From IMG/VR virus record IMGVR_UViG_2851955134_000008: 14,574 bases of DNA. The stretch is one strand, 5' to 3'. The DNA comes from a virus (Duplodnaviria; Heunggongvirae; Uroviricota; Caudoviricetes). Of this stretch, positions 1,316 through 14,574 are shown piece by piece. The notes beneath the pieces are model-generated. The model saw only the letters and a list, made by a program, of their open reading frames with translations, was not told the origin of the DNA and made no database searches. Numbering within the stretch: the first letter of the stretch is position 1; each line of letters opens with the position of its first letter. The position numbers and the translations under genes are program-made.

Positions 1316-1420
1316 AATCCGTTGAAGCCTGCTTTTTTATACTAAGTTGGCATTATAAAAAAGCATTGCTTATCAATTTGTTGCAACGAACAGGTCACTA
1401 TCAGTCAAAATAAAATCATT
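1316..1420. other. attL: attL (B-O-P' junction) of a lambda-type integration; 15-bp core GCTTTTTTATACTAA at 1331..1345
   Basis: The exact lambda att core is read directly. To its left is GTTGAAGCCT, the attB bacterial arm as I recall it. To its right is GTTGGCATTATAAAAAAGCATTGCTTATCAATTTGTTGCAACGAACAGGTCACTATCAGTCAAAATAAAATCATTATTTGATTTC, which I recall as the lambda P' arm leading into the int 3' end. Confidence 0.85.
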
Positions 1421-1685
1421 ATTTGATTTCAATTTTGTCCCACTCCCTGCCTCTGTCATCACGATACTGTGATGCCATGGTGTCCGACTTATGCCCGAGA
1501 AGATGTTGAGCAAACTTATCGCTTATCTGCTTCTCATAGAGTCTTGCAGACAAACTGCGCAACTCGTGAAAGGTAGGCGGATCCCCTTCGAAGGAAAGAC
1601 CTGATGCTTTTCGTGCGCGCATAAAATACCTTGATACTGTGCCGGATGAAAGCGGTTCGCGACGAGTAGATGCAATTATGGTTTC
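1419..1685 (-). pseudogene. int: Integrase remnant (3' third of lambda-type int, lacks N-terminal arm-binding and core-binding domains and part of the catalytic domain)
   Basis: Only the Int C-terminal segment up to the stop is present. It still includes the region around the catalytic tyrosine (LSARLYEKQ) and an intact internal GGATCC at 1579..1584. No xis ORF is present. Confidence 0.8.
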
Positions 1686-2057
1686 AACCATGTACCGGAT
1701 GTGTTCTGCCATGCGCTCCTGAAACTCAACATCGTCATCAAACGCACGGGTAATGGCTTTTTTGCTGGCCCCGTGGCGTTGTAAATGATCGATGCAGAGT
1801 GATTCAAACAGGTGCTGGGGCAGACCTTTTTCCATGTCGTCTGCCAGTTCTGCCTCTTTCTCTTCACGGGCGATCTGCTGGTAGTGACGCGTCCAGCTCT
1901 GAGCCTCAAGACGATCCTGAATGTAATAAGCGTTCATGGCTGAACTCCTGAAATAGCTGTGAAAATATCGCCCGCGAAATGCCGGGCTGATTAGGAAAAC
2001 AGGAAAGGAGGTTAGTGAATGCTTTTGCTTGATCTCAGTTTCAGTATTAATATCCAT
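1419..2057 (-). CDS. gam: In-frame chimeric ORF: lambda Gam (GamL start 2057, GamS start 1937; first ~124-127 codons) fused to the C-terminal ~85-88 codons of lambda integrase
   Basis: The N-terminal part ([15 protein letters not shown]...[15 protein letters not shown]...EHIRYMV) matches recalled lambda Gam. The C-terminal part ([21 protein letters not shown]...REWDKIEIK) matches the recalled lambda Int C-terminus. A good RBS (CAGGAG) precedes the GamS ATG. Confidence 0.85.
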
Positions 2058-4055: not shown

Positions 4056-4108
4056 ATTTAAGATTTCTTTAACTATTGGTCAAGAGCGTTTTTGAAGAAA
4101 ACTTAAAT
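4056..4108 (-). promoter_or_regulatory. OL/pL region: at least two 18-bp P22-type operator sites (4056..4073 ATTTAAGATTTCTTTAAC; 4091..4108 TTTGAAGAAAACTTAAAT)
   Basis: Both sites fit the NNNNAAGNNNNCTTNNNN pattern shared with the three OR sites. They sit upstream of nutL and N on the leftward transcription unit. Confidence 0.6.
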
Positions 4109-4151
4109 TTTGTTGCGAAGCTTAAGTTTTGCTTTGATTTTTAAAGGAAAG

Positions 4152-4172
4152 AAAAAAAGGGGCGAATGCCCC
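4152..4172 (-). terminator. Rho-independent terminator immediately after the repressor gene
   Basis: On the minus strand a GGGGC-ATTC-GCCCC hairpin is followed by TTTTTTTC, starting right after the cI stop codon. Confidence 0.6.
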
Positions 4173-4823
4173 TTATGGAAGGTTTGCTATTTTTGCATCG
4201 ACAACTACACCGATGATTTTGCAGTTCCCGTTGATCTCAATCATCGGATATTGTGGGTTAAGTGGTTTTAGAAACCTTCTGCCAGCATCAATAACTAACT
4301 TCTTGAAAGTTGCCTCGTTTTCTCCTTCGAGCTTTGCCACTACCAGCTTCCCATTACGAGGTTCTACTTCAGGATCGACTAGTATTATCATCCCTTCCGG
4401 GATGCTAAGACCGGCTGGAGCCGTCATCGAATCACCCTTTACGTCCAGCCAAAACGAATCTTCTGAACAATCTACGGTTGTATCGTACCAGTTATCTATT
4501 GCACGCTTATGATATGGCTCTACAGCTTCCATCCAACATCCTGCGCTTACCCAACTAATTAGAGGATACGAACCTCTTGGATCATGCCTGCTGTGATAGG
4601 CAATGTTTGAAAGACTATCTTCTCCTTTCAACAAGTAATCAGGGGAGCACTGTAAAGCCTTGGCTAAAGCCAATAGGTTTTCGCCATTGGGCTCAGTTTC
4701 AGAACGCTCCCATTGGGAAATAGCAACATTAGACACGCCAACCATCTTGCCAAGGGCAGCCTGCCTAATCTTAAGTTCTTTTCTGCGAGCGCGAATACGC
4801 TCACCCATCAGTTGTGTATTCAT
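4173..4823 (-). CDS. cI: Prophage repressor, P22 C2-type (N-terminal HTH, C-terminal LexA-like S24 autopeptidase domain)
   Basis: 216-aa ORF, near-identical over its length to my recollection of P22 C2 (MNTQLMGERIRARRK.LKIRQAALGKMVGVSNVAISQWERSETEPNGENLLAL...). The Ser/Lys dyad context (GDSM ... K) is present. Confidence 0.9.
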   Translation of the reverse strand: MNTQLMGERIRARRKELKIRQAALGKMVGVSNVAISQWERSETEPNGENLLALAKALQCSPDYLLKGEDSLSNIAYHSRHDPRGSYPLISWVSAGCWMEAVEPYHKRAIDNWYDTTVDCSEDSFWLDVKGDSMTAPAGLSIPEGMIILVDPEVEPRNGKLVVAKLEGENEATFKKLVIDAGRRFLKPLNPQYPMIEINGNCKIIGVVVDAKIANLP

Positions 4824-4889
4824 AGTTAAGACATCTTAAATAAACTTGACTTAAGATTCCTTTGATAGATAATTTAAGTGTTCTTTAAT
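4824..4889. promoter_or_regulatory. OR3-OR2-OR1 operators (4824..4841, 4849..4866, 4872..4889) with pR (-35 TTGACT 4846..4851, -10 GATAAT 4868..4873) and divergent pRM
   Basis: Three 18-bp sites fit NNNNAAGNNNNCTTNNNN, with 7- and 5-bp spacers. OR1 ATTTAAGTGTTCTTTAAT matches the recalled P22 OR1. The region lies between the divergent cI and cro starts. Confidence 0.75.
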
Positions 4890-4903
4890 TTCGGAGCGAG
4901 TCT

Positions 4904-5023
4904 ATGTACAAGAAAGATGTTATCGACCACTTCGGAACCCAGCGTGCGGTACCGAATACTGAAGAATTACGCCAAAACACTGACAGGAGCAGGAGTATGA
5001 AGTCAGAGATAACAATCAACTAA
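4904..5023 (+). pseudogene. cro: cro remnant: first 16 codons of a P22-type cro, then unrelated sequence to a stop (39 codons)
   Basis: MYKKDVIDHFGTQRAV matches the recalled P22 Cro N-terminus. The next 23 codons (PNTEELRQNTDRSRSMKSEITIN) do not, and the ORF is too short for a Cro fold. Confidence 0.7.
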
Positions 5024-5085
5024 TACTGTTTTGTTGATTTTTGCTTGTAATTGGCGTTCTGGTCTGAGTTTTGTGGAGTAAGTTG

Positions 5086-5463
5086 ATGCGTGATATTCAG
5101 ATGGTTCTTGAGCGTTGGGGAGCGTGGGCGGCTAATAATCATGAAGATGTGACCTGGTCGTCCATTGCCGCCGGTTTTAAGGGATTAATTCCTTCAAAAG
5201 TAAAATCTCGCCCACAATGTTGTGACGATGACGCGATGATCATTTGCGGGTGCATGGCCCGTCTGAAAAAGAACAACAGCGATTTGCATGATTTATTGGT
5301 GGACTATTATGTCGGCGGCATGACTTTTATGGCGCTTGCACGTAAGCATGGGCGATCTGATTGTTGGGTTGGCAGGATGCTTCAGAAAGCTGAGGGCGTA
5401 GTGGAGGGTATGCTGATGGTGTTGGATCTCCGATTGGAGATGGATGCTGATTGTTCGAAATAA
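5086..5463 (+). CDS. Q: Late-gene antiterminator Q, phage-21 / DLP12 QuuD / P22 gp23 type
   Basis: [37 protein letters not shown]... matches the recalled QuuD/gp23 family. GGAG lies 7 nt upstream of ATG 5086. It is followed by a short leader and tR'. Confidence 0.85.
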
Positions 5464-5562
5464 TTAAAGGAAAAGTTGCTGTCTGATTGTCATTAGTCTA
5501 ACATTTTAAATGTTGGAATCGCAACGTAGTTATTATCATATAACAGCTTGTTTCCTGATTTA

Positions 5563-5590
5563 GCCAGCCTCCCCAAAGGCTGGTCTTTTT
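5563..5590 (+). terminator. tR'-like rho-independent terminator of the short late leader transcript (Q-antiterminated)
   Basis: CCAGCC-TCCCCAAA-GGCTGG hairpin followed by TCTTTTTCT, about 100 nt after the Q stop. The late promoter pR' and qut site are expected in 5464..5562 but are not resolved. Confidence 0.6.
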
Positions 5591-5618
5591 CTAATAAGTA
5601 TTATTTCGGGTAGGGATT

Positions 5619-6143
5619 TTATTGTTTAACCCATAATAATTCATTGACATTGAATCCCAACTTTTGAGCGGTTCGCACATAGTCTGCTTTTACTTTATCT
5701 GGAATAGTTGGGGTCCTTGCCAGAATCCATAGGTATTCTCTGTTCGGACCACTGACAAGAGCATACTTATACTCATCATCCAGTTTGATTACATTATAGC
5801 CACCATAGAAGGGGCCAAAAAACGAAACCTTCAATGCTGCAGTTTTAGTATCTCCAGTAAAGTATGCTTTACCTTCGCTCTCGCTCCATTTATTTTTCGT
5901 TGGATCGTATCCACGGTTAAGTACACGAATCCCTCCGTCGTTCCGTTTTCCATAAGTAGCGCTGACCTGTTCCAGACCACGTTCGAACCGGTTCTCGAGG
6001 CGAGCTATTTCATACCATTTTCCGAGGTAGCGGTTGGCGTCAAAATTTGTAATCGGCTGCACACCTTTAGGTGGTGTCGGGGCCTTACATGCTATAAGAG
6101 TGAAAGAGAGTGCAATGCCAGTCAACACAGGCCATAACTTCAT
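5619..6143 (-). CDS. Blc-like bacterial lipocalin, outer-membrane lipoprotein
   Basis: 174-aa ORF with a lipoprotein signal (LIAC lipobox). It resembles recalled E. coli Blc throughout (NFDANRYLGKWYEIARLENRFERGLEQVSATY ... KVSFFGPFYGGYNVI ... YLWILARTPT). Confidence 0.85.
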   Translation of the reverse strand: MKLWPVLTGIALSFTLIACKAPTPPKGVQPITNFDANRYLGKWYEIARLENRFERGLEQVSATYGKRNDGGIRVLNRGYDPTKNKWSESEGKAYFTGDTKTAALKVSFFGPFYGGYNVIKLDDEYKYALVSGPNREYLWILARTPTIPDKVKADYVRTAQKLGFNVNELLWVKQ

Positions 6144-6335
6144 AATAAATCCTGTACTTTTGATAGTTGAGAGTAAGTATGAAAGATAGATGATTACGAC
6201 CGATCACTTAAAGAACTTTCATACTATATTAGGAATAGTCCATAACAGAAAAATTGTCAGTGATGACGCCAGAAAGGCAATTTATTCCGTGCACTACACA
6301 GTTTATGTGTTAATGAATTAGTCAAGGGGGAGAAT

Positions 6336-7295
6336 ATGATAAAAAAACCTGTGATTGGAATCAGCGGTTGTTTGGCCGGTTCTGCTGTTCGTTTTGATGG
6401 TGGTCACAAAAGAGCTGACTTTTTAATGGACAAATTAGTGGAATGGGTAACATTCAGACCAGTATGTCCGGAAATGGCTATAGGGCTGCCAGTTCCGCGT
6501 CCTGCTCTACGTCTTGTGCGCTCGATGCAAGGAAATATACGGATGTGTTTCAGCCACGACCAGAATGAGGATGTGACAGAGAGAATGACAGAGTTTAGTC
6601 GTTCTTATATGGACAAATTAAAGGATGTATCGGGGTTTGTGGTTTGTGCTAAATCTCCCAGCTGTGGCATGGAGCGCGTGCGTGTCTATGATGAAAATGG
6701 TAATCGAGGTCGTAAAGATGGAGTGGGACTATTTACGAGCACTTTGATGGAAAAGTTTTCCTGGCTACCGGTTGAAGAGGATGGGCGATTACATGATCCA
6801 GTGCTTCGTGAGAATTTTGTTGAAAGAGTTTTTGCTTTGCATGAGCTCAATCACCTTTACAAGGAGAAATTATCAAGAAGAGAGTTATTAGCTTTTCATA
6901 GTCGTTATAAGCTTCAGTTGTTGGCGCATAGTCAGGCAGGCTATAAAGATATGGGACCATTTGTGGCTGCAATACACGAGTGGGCGGACCTTGAATCATA
7001 CTTTGAGGTGTATCGTGATAAGCTGATGGCGATTCTCAGAAAACCTGCATCACGTAAAAATCACACGAATGTGCTGATGCATATACAGGGGTATTTTAGT
7101 AACTACTTAAGTACACGCCAGCGTAAAGAGTTGAGCGAGGTTATACTTAACTATCGTTCTGGCACATTACCTCTTCTTGCGCCGTTGACTCTGCTGAAGC
7201 ATTATCTGGGTGAGTATCCTAATGATTACTTGCTTACACAGAATTACTTCGATCCCTATCCGGACGAACTGGCTCTAAGACTGATGGTAAATTAA
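6336..7295 (+). CDS. DUF523 (TudS-like, putative Fe-S thiouracil desulfidase fold) fused to a DUF1722 (YbgA-like) domain
   Basis: 319-aa ORF with a GGGGG-like RBS (AAGGGGGAG) upstream. The N-terminal third has three cysteines (C12, C44, C105) spaced as in the TudS family as I recall it. The family assignment is from memory and needs an HMM search. Confidence 0.55.
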   Translation: MIKKPVIGISGCLAGSAVRFDGGHKRADFLMDKLVEWVTFRPVCPEMAIGLPVPRPALRLVRSMQGNIRMCFSHDQNEDVTERMTEFSRSYMDKLKDVSGFVVCAKSPSCGMERVRVYDENGNRGRKDGVGLFTSTLMEKFSWLPVEEDGRLHDPVLRENFVERVFALHELNHLYKEKLSRRELLAFHSRYKLQLLAHSQAGYKDMGPFVAAIHEWADLESYFEVYRDKLMAILRKPASRKNHTNVLMHIQGYFSNYLSTRQRKELSEVILNYRSGTLPLLAPLTLLKHYLGEYPNDYLLTQNYFDPYPDELALRLMVN

Positions 7296-7646
7296 TTGTA
7301 TGCGATATCATCCAAAAGGATGAGTTCCTGCATGCAGGATATTTACAATCGTAAAAACTACACTATGATACCCAGAGTGTCAGTTTGTATAAAAACTCTG
7401 TTTACGCTGAAGAAACAATTGAGATGCAACTTAAAGTTGGTAAACATGCCAGTCAAAATATATAATATTATGATTCCACGCAGCTATATATAATATAACA
7501 GATTGGTTTAATAATTTGTCTTTGTGAGTTAAATACATAATTTTATACTTGTGATGCAATGAAATTTTCCTTATTGTTGAACTGGCGAATATTGATTTTC
7601 CACCTATACTTACCTGGTGTAACCCCAATGATATCAGGTGGATAAT

Positions 7647-8378
7647 ATGCCATACATATGTTCTATCATTTTGGTGTTGAACTCGTTTGATGTCCGAATT
7701 GGTAAAGAAGATATTTTGTTTAAAAAAGGAAGTGCTGTTCTCATTGATTACAATTTAAAAGATTTTTTTTCATCAAATATAGATCATGTAATGATCGTAG
7801 ATGTTGAAGAGAAAACAGTTAATGATTTCTTTAAAAGCAACACACTCTCACCTTTTTCTGTAAGAAGGTTTTATCCGGCATACTTGATGGTGGAATGTGA
7901 AGATTTTTCATTGTTAAAGAACTTGATTGCATGCTTGAATTGTGATGGCAGAACTGTGGATTTTGTTAGAAATCAAATATCACTTGCATGTCTTGCTATC
8001 TTATCTTCAGAGAAAATAGTGCAAAGTTTTTTATTTGGATGTCTTAATAGTTTAGGAAGTAAAGTTAAGGCTATTATTCACACGGATATATCTGCAGCAT
8101 GGAGACTTTGTGATATATCTTCAAGACTGTATCTGAGTGAAAGTCTGTTAAAAAGAAAATTAAAGCACGAAGGCTTATCATTTAGTAAGTTAATTCTTGA
8201 AGAGCGAATGGTGATGGCGGAAAGGTTATTAAGCTACAATTTATATTCTGTTGGAAAAGTTGCTGAGATATGCGGTTATGAAAACACGTCATATTTTGTA
8301 AGTGTTTTCAGAAGGTATTTTGGTGTTCCTCCCCATCAATATTCATCAAGATTTTTTTTAGAAAAAGACATGATGTAA
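7647..8378 (+). CDS. AraC/XylS-family transcriptional regulator (AppY/EnvY/GadX-like), in an AT-rich island
   Basis: C-terminal 100 aa carry the two-HTH AraC signature (..LSFSKLILEERMVMAERLL..VGKVAEICGYENTSYFVSVFRRYFGVPPHQY). AGGTGG lies 7 nt upstream of ATG 7647. An alternative GTG start is at 7638. Confidence 0.8.
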   Translation: MPYICSIILVLNSFDVRIGKEDILFKKGSAVLIDYNLKDFFSSNIDHVMIVDVEEKTVNDFFKSNTLSPFSVRRFYPAYLMVECEDFSLLKNLIACLNCDGRTVDFVRNQISLACLAILSSEKIVQSFLFGCLNSLGSKVKAIIHTDISAAWRLCDISSRLYLSESLLKRKLKHEGLSFSKLILEERMVMAERLLSYNLYSVGKVAEICGYENTSYFVSVFRRYFGVPPHQYSSRFFLEKDMM

Positions 8379-8439
8379 CGTGATGCGTTTTAATGATTTT
8401 GTAATTTTCGTATTTGATAATTGTATGATGCTTTCAGCT

Positions 8440-8470
8440 ACGCCAGAATAATCGCGGCGTTTTTCTTTTT
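8440..8470 (+). terminator. Putative rho-independent terminator downstream of the AraC-family gene
   Basis: ACGCC-N11-GGCGT hairpin followed by TTTTTCTTTTT. Confidence 0.45.
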
Positions 8471-8565
8471 GAATAGATGTTCAAGCCTTACGCTAATGTA
8501 ACTTCTATACCTTTCCTCTTCGTTCCGAACCGTGTACACCATCCGTTATTTGCGGAGGTGAGGCT

Positions 8566-8781
8566 ATGAAATCCATGGATAAGTTAACAACGGGTGTCGC
8601 CTATGGCACCTCAGCAGGTAGTGCCGGTTACTGGTTTTTACAGCTGCTCGATAAAGTCACGCCCTCACAGTGGGCAGCAATAGGTGTGCTGGGTAGCCTG
8701 GTATTTGGCCTGCTGACGTACCTGACAAACCTTTATTTCAAGATTAAAGAAGATAAGCGCAAGGCTGCGAGAGGTGAATAA
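8566..8781 (+). CDS. S: Pinholin, phage-21 S21 type, with dual starts (MKSMDK: antiholin from 8566, holin from 8575)
   Basis: 71-aa ORF matching recalled S21/EssD (..[43 protein letters not shown]). Two transmembrane segments. It lies immediately upstream of the endolysin. Confidence 0.9.
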
Positions 8782-9278
8782 TGCCTCCATCATTACGAAA
8801 AGCCGTTGCTGCTGCTATTGGTGGCGGAGCAATTGCTATAGCATCAGTGTTAATCACTGGCCCAAGTGGTAACGATGGTCTGGAAGGTGTCAGCTACATA
8901 CCATACAAAGATATCGTTGGCGTATGGACTGTATGTCACGGGCATACAGGAAAAGACATCATTCCCGGTAAAACGTATACCGAAGCAGAATGCAAAGCCC
9001 TCCTGAATAAAGACCTTGCCACGGTAGCCAGACAAATTAACCCGTACATCAAAGTCGATATACCGGAAACAACGCGCGGCGCTCTTTACTCGTTCGTCTA
9101 TAACGTGGGCGCAGGCAATTTCAGAACATCTACTCTTCTTCGCAAAATAAACCAGGGCGATATCAGGGGCGCATGTGACCAGCTACGTCGCTGGGCATAC
9201 GCTGGCGGTAAGCAATGGAAAGGCCTGATGACTCGTCGTGAGATTGAGCGTGAGGTCTGTTTGTGGGGGCAACAATGA
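8781..9278 (+). CDS. R: SAR endolysin (signal-anchor-release lysozyme), R21 type
   Basis: 165-aa ORF with an N-terminal glycine/alanine-rich SAR segment ([20 protein letters not shown]) followed by a lysozyme domain. Its start overlaps the S stop (TAATG). Confidence 0.9.
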
Positions 9279-9739
9279 GCAGGGTAACCGCGATTATCTC
9301 CGCTCTGGTTATCTGCATCATCGTCTGCCTGTCATGGGCTGTTAATCATTACCGTGATAACGCCATTACCTACAAAGCCCAGCGCGACAAAAATGCCAGA
9401 GAACTGAAGCTGGCGAACGCGGCAATTACTGACATGCAGATGCGTCAGCGTGATGTTGCTGCGCTCGATGCAAAATACACGAAGGAGTTAGCTGATGCGA
9501 AAGCTGAAAATGATGCTCTGCGTGATGATGTTGCCGCTGGTCGTCGTCGGTTGCACATCAAAGCAGTCTGTCAGTCAGTGCGTGAAGCCACCACCGCCTC
9601 CGGCGTGGATAATGCAGCCTCCCCCCGACTGGCAGACACCGCTGAACGGGATTATTTCACCCTCCGGGAACGACTGGTAATGATGCAGGCCCAACTTGAA
9701 GGTGCTCAGCAATACATAACCGAGCAGTGTTTAAAGTAA
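9275..9739 (+). CDS. Rz: Rz i-spanin (inner-membrane spanin subunit)
   Basis: Starts at ATGA, overlapping the R stop. It has an N-terminal transmembrane segment and a coiled-coil-like periplasmic domain. Rz1 is embedded in the +1 frame. Confidence 0.85.
9495..9680 (+). CDS. Rz1: Rz1 o-spanin (outer-membrane lipoprotein), embedded within Rz in a different frame
   Basis: 61-aa ORF with a lipobox (LVVVGC) and a proline-rich mature region ([15 protein letters not shown]), entirely inside Rz. Confidence 0.8.
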
Positions 9740-9876
9740 AATCTTAACTACAATATGATTCATTTTGATGATTGTTTCATAAGGAACAGTGAAGTAAGAT
9801 CTAAGAGGAGTTAAATTTTATACAGTATAATCATAATATTGCAGCAAGGTGGTTATAATTGAAAGAATATTTAGAT

Positions 9877-11334
9877 ATGAATACATCTCATGTAAGAGTT
9901 GTTACTCATATGTGTGGGTTCCTGGTTTGGCTCTATAGTCTTTCAATGTTGCCACCAATGGTTGTAGCATTGTTTTATAAAGAAAAAAGCCTGTTCGTTT
10001 TCTTTATAACTTTCGTTATATTTTTTTGCATTGGTGGCGGAGCGTGGTATACAACTAAGAAATCTGGCATTCAATTACGTACCCGTGATGGGTTTATTAT
10101 AATTGTAATGTTTTGGATTTTGTTTTCTGTTATTAGTGCATTCCCTTTATGGATTGACTCAGAACTTAATTTAACGTTCATTGATGCTCTGTTTGAAGGG
10201 GTTTCTGGAATAACAACAACAGGAGCAACTGTAATTGATGATGTTAGTTCATTACCTCGGGCATATTTGTACTATCGGTCACAGTTAAATTTTATAGGTG
10301 GTTTAGGAGTTATTGTTCTGGCGGTTGCTGTATTGCCATTATTGGGTATTGGTGGTACAAAGCTTTATCAGTCAGAAATGCCGGGGCCATTTAAGGATGA
10401 CAAACTCACTCCCCGCCTGGCCGATACGTCACGGACACTGTGGATAACTTATTCTTTATTAGGTATTGCTTGTATTGTCTGTTATAGACTTGCAGGAATG
10501 CCTTTGTTTGATGCTATTTGTCACGGGATTTCCACAGTTTCGCTTGGTGGTTTCTCAACTCATAGCGAGAGTATCGGATATTTTAATAACTATTTGGTTG
10601 AGCTGGTGGCTGGTTCTTTTTCCCTGCTATCGGCTTTCAACTTCACTCTTTGGTATATTGTTATTAGCAGGAAAACGATAAAACCTTTAATCAGAGATAT
10701 TGAACTTCGTTTCTTTCTGTTAATAGCCTTAGGGGTGATCATTGTTACCTCTTTCCAGGTCTGGCATATAGGTATGTATGACTTGCATGGAAGTTTTATT
10801 CATTCGTTTTTTCTTGCCAGCTCCATGCTCACTGATAATGGTTTAGCTACGCAGGATTATGCAAACTGGCCCACGCACACGATAGTGTTTTTGCTGTCGT
10901 CAAGTTTCTTTGGGGGATGTATAGGTTCAACTTGTGGTGGAATTAAGTCACTTCGATTTCTTATACTTTTCAAACAAAGCAAACACGAGATAAATCAGCT
11001 TTCTCATCCCAGAGCGTTGTTGAGTGTAAATGTAGGAGGGAAGATAGTTACAGATCGTGTAATGAGGTCTGTATGGAGTTTCTTTTTTCTTTATACTCTC
11101 TTCACGGTGTTTTTTATACTGGTGTTAAATGGTATGGGATATGATTTTCTTACATCATTTGCAACAGTGGCTGCATGTATTAATAATATGGGATTAGGTT
11201 TTGGGGCTACTGCATCGTCATTCGGAGTGCTTAATGACATTGCAAAATATTTAATGTGCATAGCTATGATTCTTGGTCGCCTTGAAATTTATCCTGTTAT
11301 TATATTGTTTTCAGGTTTTTTTTGGCGCTCCTAA
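9877..11334 (+). CDS. trkG: TrkG/TrkH-family potassium uptake transporter (prophage-borne, as trkG in the Rac prophage)
   Basis: 485-aa polytopic membrane ORF matching recalled E. coli TrkG from MNTSHVRVVTHMCGFLVWLYSL onward. The region is AT-rich. An alternative in-frame TTG lies at 9859. Confidence 0.9.
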   Translation: MNTSHVRVVTHMCGFLVWLYSLSMLPPMVVALFYKEKSLFVFFITFVIFFCIGGGAWYTTKKSGIQLRTRDGFIIIVMFWILFSVISAFPLWIDSELNLTFIDALFEGVSGITTTGATVIDDVSSLPRAYLYYRSQLNFIGGLGVIVLAVAVLPLLGIGGTKLYQSEMPGPFKDDKLTPRLADTSRTLWITYSLLGIACIVCYRLAGMPLFDAICHGISTVSLGGFSTHSESIGYFNNYLVELVAGSFSLLSAFNFTLWYIVISRKTIKPLIRDIELRFFLLIALGVIIVTSFQVWHIGMYDLHGSFIHSFFLASSMLTDNGLATQDYANWPTHTIVFLLSSSFFGGCIGSTCGGIKSLRFLILFKQSKHEINQLSHPRALLSVNVGGKIVTDRVMRSVWSFFFLYTLFTVFFILVLNGMGYDFLTSFATVAACINNMGLGFGATASSFGVLNDIAKYLMCIAMILGRLEIYPVIILFSGFFWRS

Positions 11335-11420
11335 TATATGGCTGATTTATAATTGTGAGTTTAATATTATATTGACTCACTCATTGATCCAATACCTAAC
11401 TTTACCAGCAACACCTCCGC

Positions 11421-11455
11421 CCCCAGTAGCACTGGCTGCTGGGGTGCGTTTTATT
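11421..11455 (+). terminator. Putative rho-independent terminator after trkG
   Basis: CCCCAG..CTGGGG stem (with internal AGC/GCT pairing) followed by TGCGTTTTATTC. Confidence 0.4.
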
Positions 11456-11471
11456 CATAAAGCAAGGCTGT

Positions 11472-13304
11472 ATGAGCGAGAAATTAAAGATAGTCTATCG
11501 CCCATTACAAGAATTGTCACCGTATGCGCACAACGCCAGGACGCACAGTACTGAGCAGGTGGCACAACTGGTAGAAAGTATTAAGCAATTCGGCTGGACT
11601 AATCCGGTGCTGATTGACGAAAAGGGCGAAATTATTGCGGGTCACGGTCGTGTTATGGCGGCTGAAATGCTCAAAATGGATTCTGTTCCGGTCATTGTTC
11701 TGTCTGGCCTGACGGATGAGCAGAAAAAGGCGTACCGCCTGGCAGATAATCGCCTACCGATGAATGCTGGCTGGGATGAAGATCTGTTGCGGATGGAGCT
11801 GTCGGACCTAATCAATGCTGATTTTGATGTCTCCCTGACAGGCTTCGGCCCGACACAAATTGATGAACTGTTGACGGATGTTTTGCCCGGTACAGGAAAT
11901 AAGGAGGAGGGGAATACCAATATATCCGGCGTCACGGTGGTGTTCCGGGCCGGTGAGCAGGAGCAGACACCGCCGGAGGGATTTGAATCCTCCGGCTCCG
12001 AGACGGTGCTCGGTACAGAAGTGAAATATGACACGCCGATCACCCGGACCATCACGTCGGCAAACATTGACCGTCTGCGTTTTACTTTCGGCGTGCAGGC
12101 ACTGGTGGAAACCACCTCAAAGGGGGACAGGAATCCATCGGAAGTCCGCCTGCTGGTTCAGATACAACGTAACGGTGGCTGGGTGACGGAAAAAGACATC
12201 ACCATTAAGGGTAAAACCACTTCACAGTATCTGGCCTCGGTGGTGGTGGATAACCTGCCGCCGCGCCCGTTCAGTATCCGGATGCGCAGGATGACGCCGG
12301 ACAGCACCACAGACCAGCTGCAGAACAAAACGCTCTGGTCGTCATACACCGAAATTATCGATGTGAAACAGTGCTACCCGAACACGGCACTGTTCGGCGT
12401 GCAGGTGGACTCGGAGCAGTTCGGCAGCCAGCAGGTGAGCCGTAATTATCATCTGCGCGGGCGTATTCTGCAGGTGCCGTCGAATTATAACCCGCAGACG
12501 CGGCAATACAGCGGTATCTGGGACGGAACGTTTAAACCGGCATACAGCAACAACATGGCCTGGTGTATGTGGGATATGCTGACCCATCCGCGCTACGGCA
12601 TGGGGAAACGTCTTGGTGCAGCGGATGTAGATAAATGGGCGCTGTATGTCATCGGCCAGTACTGCGACCAGTCGGTGCCGGACGGCTTTGGCGGCACGGA
12701 GCCGCGCATCACCTGTAATGCGTACCTGACCACACAGCGCAAGGCGTGGGATGTGCTCAGTGATTTCTGCTCGGCGATGCGCTGTATGCCGGTATGGAAC
12801 GGGCAGACGCTGACGTTCGTGCAGGACCGACCATCAGATAAGGTGTGGACCTATAACCGCAGTAATGTGGTGATGCCGGATGATGGCGCGCCGTTCCGCT
12901 ACAGCTTCAGCGCCCTGAAGGACCGCCATAATGCCGTTGAGGTGAACTGGATTGACCCGAACAACGGCTGGGAGACGGCGACAGAGCTTGTTGAAGATAC
13001 GCAGGCCATTGCCCGTTACGGTCGTAACGTCACGAAGATGGATGCCTTTGGCTGTACCAGCCGGGGGCAGGCGCACCGCGCCGGGCTGTGGCTGATTAAA
13101 ACGGAACTGCTGGAAACGCAGACCGTGGACTTCAGCGTGGGTGCGGAAGGGCTTCGCCATGTACCGGGGGATGTCATTGAAATCTGCGATGATGACTATG
13201 CGGGTATCAGCATCGGCGGGCGTGTGCTGGCGGTGAACAGCCAGACCCGGACGCTGACGCTCGACCGTGAAATCACGCTGCCATCCTCCGGTAAATCCGT
13301 TTAA
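11472..13304 (+). CDS. J: In-frame chimera: ParB-like nuclease-domain protein N-terminus (~145 aa, YnaK-like) fused to an internal segment of lambda tail-tip protein J (to about J residue 530), then a stop 3 codons past the J homology
   Basis: Residues 1-145 carry a ParB/Srx-like motif ([11 protein letters not shown]). From [36 protein letters not shown] to REITLPSSG the sequence matches recalled lambda J. J's N-terminal ~65 residues and C-terminal ~600 residues, including the receptor-binding end, are absent. Confidence 0.85.
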
Positions 13305-13608
13305 CCACAGCTCCGTCCCTAAACATCCACTTACTGGAATCATCAGCGCAGCGGTTGGCTGTAATATCTGGAACCTCAACGACGCTATAACCTTCAGGGT
13401 TAAGCGTGGAGGCATCTTTGGTGATGGCGACAATAATATTATTTGCATCGTAAACAATCTTTATTGTGTCTGGCTGAAAGTTTTTCACTTCCTCATACCA
13501 GTTTTTTCCGTCTTCGGACCATAACCAGATAACATCAAAATTCTTTGTTAGCTGATATTGTTCTTTTGTTTTTGGATTTCCAGACTTAATATTTTTTAAA
13601 TGCTGCAT
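13273..13608 (-). pseudogene. tfa: Tail fibre assembly gene (Mu U / e14 TfaE-like family), 3'-truncated at the junction with J and reading antisense into J sequence
   Basis: N-terminus [14 protein letters not shown]...[30 protein letters not shown] resembles the recalled Tfa family. The ORF is 111 aa against roughly 190 aa for that family. Its last codons overlap the J-homologous sequence on the other strand. Confidence 0.6.
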
Positions 13609-13611
13609 AAA

Positions 13612-14574
13612 TTACACCTGTACGACGTTATACCATGTGCCATTGATGTATTTTTGTATTGGTCTGAATACTGCCGGATCATCGCCATCAACTGCACCGA
13701 TAATGCCAAGCCCCGTAATTGCATGACCTGATTTCTCATACATCACGCCTTTTTGCATAGTCTGAACAACACGTGTACCAAGTCGGACATCTCTCACATA
13801 ACGTGAGTCAAAATTACCATAATTGCCGGGAATAACTTGCGCACCGCAAAGCCAGTTGCCATTGTTGTCCATGTACGCCTGACCATCGGTGCCATTGGCT
13901 GTCCTTGAGTTATTAATCATGTAGATGCCAAATTGCTTATTCCCCAGTCCACCAATCATAAATTTGCGATCAGCGTGGTCCTGACGAAGTAATGCCTGCG
14001 CACCATCGGTGGATACCGCATTGCGTCCCAAAATAACATTCTGGTCACGCATATGAATCCACATGCCGGTACTACTGTTAATTGCAAAACGGTTTGCAAA
14101 TATATCCCCTGTAACATCAAGACCATGCCCCATGCTTATCCGACCAGTTCTGAGATTAAGCGTAAAGGGGCGTAGTGGCCCTATATCACCATTTTCTCCC
14201 TCATTCTCTCGTGTAGGGATGATATGCAGGCATTCTTCAGAACGACGAAAAATAGCACCAAAAGATGAATTAAATATCCTCAGTGCATTGACTGTCGATA
14301 TTTTTACTTCACTGCTGAAAAGGGCTTTAACAAGGACAGACAAAGCATCCCATTTAAGAGTCATCAGGTCTTTTGTTGTGGTGCTCTGGCGGCTTCTCCA
14401 TTTGAAATATTCATTGCCGTTGTCGCCTGTTTCAAACCACATGTATGAATCAGTGTCGCTGTCGGCATTATTTTTAAAACCAATCTTTGCCCAGTCAGTA
14501 TTTCTAATCCAGGCAAGGATTGAGTCGTTTTCAAAAGTAAGCCCACCGGACAAGGTATCGCCATTCTTTTGCAC
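13612..14574 (-). CDS. stf: Tail fibre protein, C-terminal portion (5' end lies beyond the window), directly upstream of tfa
   Basis: Open frame from the window edge to a stop at 13612, four nt before the tfa start. The glycine/asparagine-rich sequence is typical of a fibre distal domain. The labelled first Met is not the real start. Confidence 0.6.
   Translation of the reverse strand: MQKNGDTLSGGLTFENDSILAWIRNTDWAKIGFKNNADSDTDSYMWFETGDNGNEYFKWRSRQSTTTKDLMTLKWDALSVLVKALFSSEVKISTVNALRIFNSSFGAIFRRSEECLHIIPTRENEGENGDIGPLRPFTLNLRTGRISMGHGLDVTGDIFANRFAINSSTGMWIHMRDQNVILGRNAVSTDGAQALLRQDHADRKFMIGGLGNKQFGIYMINNSRTANGTDGQAYMDNNGNWLCGAQVIPGNYGNFDSRYVRDVRLGTRVVQTMQKGVMYEKSGHAITGLGIIGAVDGDDPAVFRPIQKYINGTWYNVVQV

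Follow-up and report, generated by a model that had tools for sequence, protein, structure and literature searches.

DLP12 (qsr') of E. coli K-12 is the textbook case of a lysis cassette kept in a defective lambdoid prophage. Its lysis module is reportedly conserved and transcribed, with an effect on OMV production (PMC7918800). When prophages are considered as a whole, incomplete ones preferentially lose their lysis genes (PMC7744054). The laboratory phage 434B carries a cassette identical to that of DLP12 (1372 of 1372 bases), which supports the functionality of cassettes of this type. A second K-12 prophage, Rac, keeps the order rzpR'-rzoR-trkG-ynaK, and at the family level the reference system is phage 21, with its S21 pinholin and R21 SAR endolysin. 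In phage lambda, the C-terminal ends of the Rz and Rz1 proteins interact.

The window, by which we mean the whole 14,574-nt stretch of DNA analyzed here, contains a remnant of about 13.5 kb of an E. coli prophage with P22-type immunity located at att-lambda (ybhC-ybhB). Four lysis genes lie on its + strand between positions 8566 and 9739, with coordinates taken from the open reading frame (ORF) listing and from direct reading of the sequence. S (8566..8781) encodes a 71-aa class II holin (pinholin) that starts with MKSMDK, and R (8781..9278) encodes a 165-aa SAR endolysin (GH24 lysozyme) with a Gly/Ala-rich N-terminal signal-anchor-release (SAR) domain. The i-spanin gene Rz (9275..9739; ATG at 9275) specifies 154 aa, with an N-terminal TM helix followed by a periplasmic domain, and the gene for the 61-aa o-spanin lipoprotein, Rz1 (9495..9680), is embedded entirely within Rz in the +1 frame [(9495-9275) mod 3 = 1]. 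S and R overlap in TAATG, where the final A of the S stop codon TAA (8779-8781) is the first base of the R ATG (8781-8783), and R and Rz overlap in ATGA, where the R stop codon TGA (9276-9278) is overlapped by the Rz ATG (9275-9277). In Pfam searches, all four proteins scored far above the gathering thresholds: S matched PF04971 (P21 holin S; 121 bits, cutoff 26), R matched PF00959 (phage lysozyme; 155 bits), Rz matched PF03245 (180 bits), and Rz1 matched PF06085 (69.5 bits). PHROG holin families were also matched by S, and phrog_13 was matched by Rz over residues 1-154 of 154. The NCBIfam search returned no model naming S, Rz, Rz1, or Q, and gave only sub-threshold matches to unrelated equivalogs for R. 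Each lysis protein has the length of its reference or one additional residue at the Rac-type C-terminus. The initial annotation had claimed four full-length genes with these overlaps, an Rz1 in the +1 frame, and a dual start in S, and this description is borne out by the ORF listing, the direct reading, and the Pfam results.

The S protein is identical (71/71) to EssD of K-12 DLP12 and to the phage 434B product annotated as antiholin / holin class II. ATG codons are present at 8566 and 8575, with GGAGGTGAGG upstream, and use of both is predicted from sequence: initiation at Met1 would yield a 71-aa antiholin, and initiation at Met4 (ATG at 8575) a 68-aa holin. Only residues 33-58 (TMD2) of S pass the hydropathy threshold; the Gly/Ala/Ser-rich residues 8-28 (TMD1) are weakly hydrophobic and fall below it. 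TMD2 carries G40, S44, and G48 (GxxxSxxxG), which we take to be the motif positions of the S21 literature. The R protein matched RrrD (PDB 4ZPU) with 364 bits and 160 of 165 residues identical, and matched PDB 3HDE, presumably R21 of phage 21, with 361 bits over its full length. Its catalytic Glu-Asp-Thr triad is in place (E35, D44, and T50), its sole hydrophobic stretch is the Gly/Ala-rich SAR domain (residues 5-31), and residues 1-60 are identical to those of RrrD. The five differences from RrrD (M61I, L62P, K67E, K129R, and T138A) spare the catalytic residues.

The Rz protein has a TMD within residues 1-27, contains Cys99 and Cys152, and matches Rz of phage vB_EcoS-683R6 in length. Rz1 has a VVGC lipobox with Cys20, followed by Cys29 and a PPPPP run, and is identical (61/61) to RzoR of K-12. 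The Rz sequence is of Rac type from about 9295 onward, with 99.3% identity to K-12 Rac over 9295-11725. Moreover, the C-termini of Rz and Rz1 (in Rz1, ...SGNDW) change jointly to the Rac / 683R6 type after 9664. These features assign S and R to the phage 21 / DLP12 type, and the 3' part of Rz/Rz1 to the Rac type. All sequence features checked for the pinholin, SAR endolysin, and embedded spanin identities given previously are present. Judged by its genes, the cassette consists of four complete lysis genes of ordinary phage-21/DLP12 type, and it forms an intact, presumably functional lambdoid lysis module.

The immunity region lies to the left. On the - strand, c2 (4173..4823) encodes a P22-type repressor (phrog_4) whose N-domain is of the HTH class and whose C-domain is a self-cleaving S24 domain; the N-domain is identical to the P22 C2 repressor (PDB 1ADR) at 71 of 76 residues, the C-domain is homologous to that of lambda cI, and an identical product is recorded with PF01381 and PF00717. 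Disruption of c2 was considered for two assemblies, in which the gene is called as 119 aa, and was rejected; the DNA is identical to the window and the start-codon choice differs. The OR operator region and predicted pR promoter follow (4824..4903, + strand), with a -35 of TTGACT (4846-4851) and a -10 of GATAAT (4868-4873). This is the best promoter-like site within 4100-10000 (10 of 12 positions matched), and it is identical in cro-intact sister prophages. The putative OR operators were assigned by eye from P22-like TTAAG....CTTAA half-sites.

Downstream of pR, cro' is fused to the 3' end of ylcG in a 39-aa ORF (4904..5023, + strand). The deletion junction is at 4950/4951, where homology to the sister prophage MB30 jumps (L004 19359 to 24014), and the deletion removed cro(3')-cII-O-P-ren-nin-rusA-ylcG(5'). 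The cro'-ylcG junction was recognized in seven contigs by the fusion peptide and in L020 by alignment, and it was found in none of 5426 complete E. coli genomes; the 32-nt cro'-Q junction was not found in scans of IMG/VR and JGI metagenomes. This cro'-Q remnant has lasted long enough to be found in at least eight contigs, which come from different samples and show recombination tracts as well as additional deletions.

Q (5086..5463, + strand) is an intact late-gene antiterminator of the QuuD type (PF06530, 173 bits; phrog_79) and a distant relative of the solved Q21. Positions 4950-8742, including Q, show zero differences from MB30. The region that follows (5464..5592, + strand) is where the pR' late promoter is predicted to lie, together with a tR' terminator-like site on the + strand formed by a hairpin (5563-5584; -14.2 kcal/mol, z = -3.0 compared to shuffles) plus a T-run, which polymerase modified by Q would have to read through. 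The tR' hairpin lies 100 nt past Q, and S-R-Rz follow 3.1 kb downstream on the same strand; the homology of the Q region to DLP12 stops at 5445. Three cargo genes separate Q from S: blc, encoding a lipocalin (5619-6143, - strand), a ybgA-like DUF523/DUF1722 gene (6336-7295, + strand), and a low-GC gene for an AraC-family regulator (7647-8378, + strand), all matching Pfam families and PHROG families of phage origin. Numerous other prophages have this cargo block (5619..8378) in the same place between Q and S, and the GC content is 32-33% over 7201-8400. Directly downstream of Rz is a further cargo gene, trkG (9877..11334, + strand), for a potassium transporter (PF02386, 480 bits); the Rz-trkG order also occurs in K-12 Rac and in phage vB_EcoS-683R6.

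As mapped by alignment, at least four deletions made this remnant: int(5')-gam(3'), cro(3')-ylcG(5'), ynaK(3')-J(5'), and J(3')-tfa(5'). The first left a Gam-Int' fusion ORF (1419..2057, - strand) with its junction at 1678-1685 (8-bp overlap), and alignment to MB30 shows that the 5' part of int, xis, exo, bet, and the 3' end of gam were removed. The called product of this fusion matches Pfam Gam and Phage_integrase; an exact look-up of the 212-aa ORF gave no match, and gene callers choose a shorter 172-aa start. On the right, ynaK'-J' is an in-frame fusion (11472-13304, junction 11909/11910) with Pfam ParB_N and GpJ domains, and tfa' (13273-13608, - strand) and a tail-fibre C-terminal fragment (13612-14574, - strand) are remnants of the structural module. 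RefSeq labels these three pieces as partial pseudogenes in the ETEC copy. Within the window we found no replication genes (O, P, ren, and nin), no terminase, and no head or tail genes beyond the three tail-gene fragments, and where contigs align collinearly with the entire window, its right end is followed by nothing more than a resolvase fragment and host genes. These losses bear out the earlier claim that the prophage cannot make virions.

The age of this decay can be read from sister prophages. This prophage also occupies the ybhC-ybhB site in MB30, YSP8-1, MB46, ET474, HeN100, and EC529, where cro-O-P-nin are still present and terminase, head, or tail genes have been kept to varying extents. 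The window differs from MB30 at 4 of 11,933 aligned bases, from YSP8-1 at 7 of 12,716 bases, from the ETEC copy at 3 of 10,528 bases, and from near-complete sister prophages overall at 4-14 positions in about 12 kb. For the 1.17-kb cassette, about 0.4 substitutions would be expected under neutrality and one was observed (9166, R K129R; nonsynonymous, with no synonymous change), so that the intactness of the cassette is what neutral, recent decay predicts. Moreover, IS elements destroyed the cassette independently in three of eight sister copies, namely by insertion of ISKpn26 into S at 8739-8742 in MB30, by insertion of IS3 into R at 8889-8891 in HeN100, and by IS3 with loss of 8624-9610 (S into Rz) in EC529. 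In the initial annotation, the intact cassette plus Q had been taken to suggest selection or recent decay. Recent decay is upheld by the few differences from the sister prophages, and selection for retention finds no support, given the three knockouts and the single nonsynonymous change. We conclude that the cassette is very probably intact by default, because the deletions are very recent on the point-mutation scale, and that the sequence comparisons do not support selection for its retention. Purifying selection after loss of phage autonomy was not detected (one nonsynonymous change, no synonymous change, and three of eight copies knocked out) in a comparison of very low power, and weak selection may be compatible with recent decay.

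An alternative is that the host retains the cassette and Q under purifying selection for a benefit of low-level expression, for example in peptidoglycan turnover, vesicle control, or biofilm formation, as has been proposed for DLP12, whose module is reported to be conserved and transcribed and to influence OMV production (PMC7918800). An intact cassette occurs in five of the eight sister structures, as well as in over 25 ETEC genomes that lack c2 and Q, and its dN/dS is 0.07-0.09 compared to DLP12 and phage 683R6. However, identity between the window and the ETEC copies is 100% even across pseudogene fragments, so that these copies say nothing about constraint. The dN/dS check against DLP12 had been proposed earlier, and phage 683R6 was used alongside; we rejected the resulting values as a test of post-decay selection, since nearly all of the divergence is older than the decay and the low ratio reflects the past of these genes in working phages. 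Domestication would also have to accommodate the three IS knockouts, a sole post-split change that is nonsynonymous, and the preferential loss of lysis genes from incomplete prophages in general (PMC7744054). We consider domestication unlikely. At least 80% of the cassette is found in 3582 of 5426 complete E. coli genomes, none of which has the structure of the window (the best covers 82% in several pieces). Given this frequency and the precedent of DLP12 (PMC7918800), the description of an intact cassette plus Q as notable was overstated.

If the cassette is expressed, C2 would be expected to block pR, and pR to drive Q. Q would then act at pR'/tR', and transcription would read through the blc/ybgA/araC-like cargo into S-R-Rz/Rz1. 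By analogy with the phage 21 and lambda paradigms, R would be exported by Sec and tethered in an inactive state in the inner membrane by its SAR domain, while the S68 holin would accumulate, restrained by the S71 antiholin, until triggering. Triggered S would form small holes that collapse the membrane potential, R would be freed into the periplasm, refold, and cut peptidoglycan, and the Rz/Rz1 complex, spanning the periplasm, would disrupt the outer membrane.

This scheme would fail if the cassette looked intact yet were dead, whether because missense changes had inactivated R or because transcription had been lost. Such a reading could draw on the five substitutions relative to the solved RrrD, on the lack of a strong promoter-like site directly upstream of S (8379-8565), and on the deletion of Q and pR' in the ETEC sister lineage. 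However, three of the substitutions (I61, P62, and E68) are shared with vB_EcoS-683R6, which was deposited as a phage genome, and the catalytic triad and SAR domain are unchanged. Likewise, Q, pR, and c2 of the window are identical to those of cro-keeping sister prophages. A terminator between the araC-like gene and S was considered and rejected; this interval contains no strong terminator, and its weak hairpin (-7 to -8 kcal/mol) is no better than shuffles. We regard a dead cassette as very improbable.

A different reading concerns the cro-ylcG deletion itself, which placed Q about 210 nt downstream of pR without cro, nutR, or terminators between them. A lapse of C2 repression (SOS) could then fire Q and the lysis genes, and promoter-down, Q, or IS mutations could give hosts a way out; the window might represent an unattenuated ancestral state, although we hold this only tentatively. 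The remnant would then be a minimal SOS-triggered autolysis switch (C2, pR, Q, and pinholin/SAR endolysin/spanin) that needs no Cro, N, or replication. It is possible, but in our judgment doubtful, that this switch is active and costly, that descendants are being disarmed at pR, Q, or tR' or by IS elements, and that the window is the still-armed ancestral allele. The + strand of 4874-5086, which spans the junction, has no terminator-like site. The -35 or -10 of pR is changed in five of the eight other junction-bearing contigs: the -35 TTGACT is TTAACT (4848) in four, and the -10 GATAAT is GTTAAT (4869) in one. Among complete, cro-intact genomes, 4848A occurs once and 4869T never, with the operator region present in 487 genomes. 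The first search for these variants used 80-nt queries, which could miss diverged operator haplotypes, and it was redone with 40-nt queries seeding only on the variant. Further junction-bearing contigs carry A15G or P36T in Q, or a C>T change that lengthens the T-run of tR'. In addition, of seven simple IS insertions in sister prophages, two lie in S or R compared to 0.2-0.3 expected by length, with small numbers and with IS target preference uncontrolled. Against this reading, the four 4848A contigs form a single clade, so that there are only two independent promoter events, and 4848A could have come by recombination, since it is also present in one cro-intact prophage. Moreover, variants are no denser in the pR-Q segment (7 of 21 sites in 17% of the length) than in the araC-like gene (6 of 21 sites in 16%). 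The reading was also partly formed after the data were seen, and both the promoter effect and lysis are sequence-based predictions.

The survey of the cassette adds little in itself: its gene set, overlaps, and survival in a defective lambdoid prophage are long-established features of DLP12, and RefSeq already lists the proteins under the EssD and RrrD names. The att-lambda prophage family, with many sister copies at different stages of decay, offers a way to measure the order in which functions are lost and to ask whether lysis genes are actively purged. The pR-Q fusion would provide a natural minimal circuit for repressor-controlled lysis. If this circuit were live, the host would lyse on DNA damage without phage production, which would be relevant to how cell contents are released in a lineage that is related to enterotoxigenic E. 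coli.

Compared to known systems, the locus closely resembles DLP12. Both are defective lambdoid prophages with the order Q - cargo - S - R - Rz/Rz1 (quuD ... essD-rrrD-rzpD/rzoD in DLP12), and they share the gene overlaps, the dual start, and a QuuD-type Q (90.7% nucleotide identity), with S identical at 71/71 and R at 160/165 residues and 95.9% nucleotide identity over 8551-9664. In contrast to DLP12, which carries nmpC::IS5 between Q and S, the window has the blc/ybgA/araC-like cargo, and upstream of S the two are unrelated until position 8551, so that the promoters reported for DLP12 cannot simply be carried over. The last 75 nt of Rz/Rz1 are of Rac type, bor is replaced by trkG, and the prophage lies at att-lambda rather than at argU, with a P22-type c2 kept and adjoining Q. 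With phage 21 the window shares PF04971, the MKSM dual start, the SAR domain, and E35/D44/T50, although the likeness to S21 is at the family level. With Rac of K-12 it shares the 99.3% identity over 9295-11725, an Rz1 equal to RzoR, and trkG-ynaK downstream; however, S, R, and the 5' half of Rz, complete in the window, are deleted in Rac, where rzpR is a 300-nt pseudogene. Phages vB_EcoS-683R6 (ON470595), ev207, 2G7b, and PhiR11_1, all deposited as phage genomes, have the same S-R-Rz(-Rz1) with 96-97.5% identity but, unlike the window, have complete virion modules. In vB_EcoS-683R6 the Rac-type Rz end is likewise followed by trkG and a ParB-like gene, and then by the terminase, whereas its Q is different and tRNA genes lie upstream of S. 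A defective lambdoid prophage that keeps Q and S-R-Rz/Rz1 is already known from K-12 DLP12.

The lysis genes at 8566-9739 are all full length, as the initial annotation had described them. The ORF list and the sequence place S at 8566-8781 (71 aa; beginning MKSMDK, with Met1 and Met4), R at 8781-9278 (165 aa), Rz at 9275-9739 (154 aa), and Rz1 at 9495-9680 (61 aa), in the +1 frame within Rz. At the S/R boundary, a TAATG uses one A for both the stop codon of S and the start codon of R, and an ATGA at the R/Rz boundary overlaps the TGA of R with the ATG of Rz. Each of the four products widely exceeded its Pfam threshold (S, PF04971, 121 bits; R, PF00959, 155 bits; Rz, PF03245, 180 bits; Rz1, PF06085, 69.5 bits) and was placed in a PHROG lysis family. 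By sequence, S-R-Rz/Rz1 belongs to the phage 21/DLP12 pinholin and SAR endolysin family, with a lambda-type embedded spanin pair, and all of the features of these proteins that could be checked were found. S is identical at 71/71 residues to EssD of the K-12 cryptic prophage DLP12 and to the antiholin/class II holin annotated in phage 434B; its helix 1 is weakly hydrophobic and rich in Gly, Ala, and Ser, and its hydrophobic helix 2 bears G40/S44/G48, the glycine zipper positions of the phage 21 and lambda literature. R matches the solved DLP12 protein RrrD (PDB 4ZPU) at 160/165 residues and PDB 3HDE with 361 bits, has a Gly/Ala-rich N-terminus as its only hydrophobic stretch, and retains E35, D44, and T50, presumably the catalytic triad as numbered in that literature. 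Rz has an N-terminal membrane helix with Cys99 and Cys152, and Rz1 has a VVGC lipobox (Cys20), Cys29, and a proline run; the spanin cysteine positions likewise follow the phage 21 and lambda literature.

Alignments indicate that the cassette is a mosaic of DLP12-like and Rac-like parts. The stretch 8551-9664 is 95.9% identical to DLP12, and the sequence from 9295 onward is 99.3% identical to rzpR'-rzoR-trkG-ynaK of the K-12 Rac prophage; both Rz and Rz1 have Rac-type C-termini, and Rz1 is identical to RzoR at 61/61 residues. In near-identical contigs, changes in R or Rz are clustered, with 4-5 or more per 50-350 bp (window positions 8963-9026 in L012 and L018, 9445-9494 in L011 and L019, and 8915-9269 in L013), and in one such contig R I61M/P62L/E68K is a reversion to the DLP12 type. 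We read these clusters as short recombination patches swapped with other resident lambdoid prophages. Directly 3' of Rz lies trkG (9877-11334; GC 37-40%), an arrangement also seen in K-12 Rac and phage vB_EcoS-683R6, which implies that this host-type K+ transporter is late-operon cargo of a lambdoid phage family.

The surrounding prophage cannot make virions, as first proposed: neither the window nor the contigs collinear with it retain genes for replication, terminase, head, or tail shaft. From a left end within ybhC, the host gene flanking the lambda attachment site, the remnant runs through a Gam-Int' fusion ORF (1419-2057, minus strand), kil/cIII, a DUF2528 gene, sieB, and an N-like gene to a P22-type c2 repressor gene (4173-4823; N-domain 71/76 identical to PDB 1ADR), the operator/pR region, 16 cro codons joined to the ylcG 3' end, and Q. 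Beyond Q, a cargo block (blc, ybgA-like, and AraC-like genes) is followed by S-R-Rz/Rz1, trkG, an in-frame ynaK'-J' fusion, and tfa and tail-fibre genes, both truncated. Contigs collinear with the whole window carry beyond its right end only a resolvase fragment, a diguanylate cyclase gene, and ybhB-bioA. Alignment to sister copies of the prophage places deletions at 1678-1685 (int'-gam), 4950/4951 (cro'-ylcG'), and 11909/11910 (ynaK'-J'). The Gam-Int' ORF is the product of the first, at an 8-bp microhomology (1678-1685); with no xis and no N-terminal part of the integrase, the remnant would be unable to excise by its own means. The ynaK'-J' fusion (11472-13304) joins the ParB-like 5' part of ynaK to an internal piece of the tail-tip gene J in a 610-aa ORF, and the identical product is called in 10 or more isolate and metagenome contigs. 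The lowest GC of the window (32-33%, 7201-8400) includes the araC-like gene (7647-8378), which in relatives shows several point changes and single-base losses in T- or G-runs (7763 in L012; 8352 in L014; 8367 in YSP8-1, MB46, and ET474); these losses could be sequencing errors or reflect a variable C-terminus. In YSP8-1, the tfa'/tail-fibre C-terminal piece (13292-14069; 18951-19728 in YSP8-1) has the opposite orientation to the remainder of the prophage, and in relatives it adjoins a 64-aa resolvase/invertase fragment; it appears to be what is left of a Pin/Gin-type invertible tail-fibre segment.

Many E. coli carry this prophage at the same site, degraded to various extents. MB30 keeps int through Q, the lysis region, and the terminase, portal, and head genes. 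In YSP8-1, MB46, and ET474 the early region is whole, but an IS1 lies in the large terminase gene and most structural genes behind it are missing; HeN100 and EC529 show further, different patterns. The ETEC O6:H16 lineage has the ynaK'-J' and J'-tfa' junctions in common with the window and an IS1-linked deletion from the DUF2513 gene to blc that takes out c2 and Q. With deletions set aside, the window and MB30 show 4 mismatches in 11,933 positions; the comparison with YSP8-1 gives 7 in 12,716 and that with the ETEC copy 3 in 10,528. The intact cassette had been attributed to selection or recent decay, and the 4-7 differences from MB30 and YSP8-1 support recent decay. At that divergence, the 1,174-bp cassette should show ~0.4 substitutions, and one is observed (9166; a conservative nonsynonymous change, R K129R). 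The J', tfa', and stf' pseudogene fragments are unchanged to the same degree, so the intactness of the cassette is the neutral expectation and gives no signal of constraint. The suggested dN/dS estimate was indeed low for S, R, and the non-overlapping part of Rz (0.085 against DLP12; 0.068 against vB_EcoS-683R6), but this divergence built up while the genes served working phages. The cassette is disrupted by ISKpn26 within S (8739-8742) in MB30 (L004 27630-29045), by IS3 within R (8889-8891) in HeN100 (L026 9781-11539), and by IS3 with loss of 8624-9610, from S into Rz, in EC529 (L027 21068-22325). These independent, IS-mediated knockouts, 3 of 8 structural variants at this chromosomal site, argue against protection of the cassette. 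Among simple IS insertions, 2 of 7 fall in the cassette compared to 0.2-0.3 expected by length (roughly P = 0.02-0.04, from small numbers and with IS target preference uncontrolled). A survey of prophage gene content reported preferential loss of lysis genes from incomplete prophages (PMC7744054). Selection for retention is not supported.

Within 4824-5086, the deletion that starts at cro codon 17 and runs to the ylcG end (junction 4950/4951) brings the presumed C2-controlled pR to ~210 nt upstream of Q. This pR is the region's best promoter-like site, with a -35 TTGACT (4846-4851) and a -10 GATAAT (4868-4873), and no terminator-like site was found between it and the Q start. A strong hairpin and T-run within ~100 nt after Q (5563-5592, z = -3.0) fit a putative pR'-tR' unit, of which pR' itself could not be placed. 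If this wiring is real, SOS induction would lead to C2 cleavage, expression of Q, and then expression of S-R-Rz/Rz1, with no need for Cro, N, or replication. The junction was found in none of 5426 complete genomes and had no match in IMG/VR or JGI metagenomes; it occurs in 8 contigs of a larger collection, isolate assemblies and metagenome scaffolds among them. One of these keeps full gam and bet sequence upstream and another has a different gene after S, implying that the junction predates the int'-gam deletion.

A pR hexamer is altered in 5 of these 8 contigs (-35 TTAACT, 4848 G>A, in four; -10 GTTAAT, 4869 A>T, in one), a C>T change lengthens the tR' T-run in two, and two have missense changes in Q (A15G, P36T); the window has the ancestral base at all of these sites. 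The operator region is present in 487 complete genomes, all with intact cro and 83 with an identical 80-mer; among the 5426, 4848A occurs in one (strain 6629, cro intact) and 4869T in none. Attenuation of a dangerous circuit would be expected to leave such variants, yet this reading is weak: the 4848A contigs form a single clade, leaving just two independent promoter events, and overall, variants are no denser in pR-Q than in the araC-like gene. The repressor-pR-Q-lysis short circuit, with its possible signs of disarming in relatives, is the only part that might repay work.

A defective lambdoid prophage that keeps Q and an intact S-R-Rz/Rz1 is already known. Of 5426 complete E. coli genomes, 3582 contain 80% or more of the cassette, and its identity in deposited phage genomes is 96-97.5%. 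The known case of Q with intact S-R-Rz/Rz1 is DLP12; its module is described as integrally conserved and transcribed, and its effects on vesicles, the cell wall, and biofilm have been studied (PMC7918800). Laboratory phage 434B (OL657227, deposited as 'mutant phage 434B') shows 0 differences in 1372 bases from K-12 DLP12 across nmpC::IS5-essD-rrrD-rzpD, and apparently obtained its lysis genes from that cryptic prophage.
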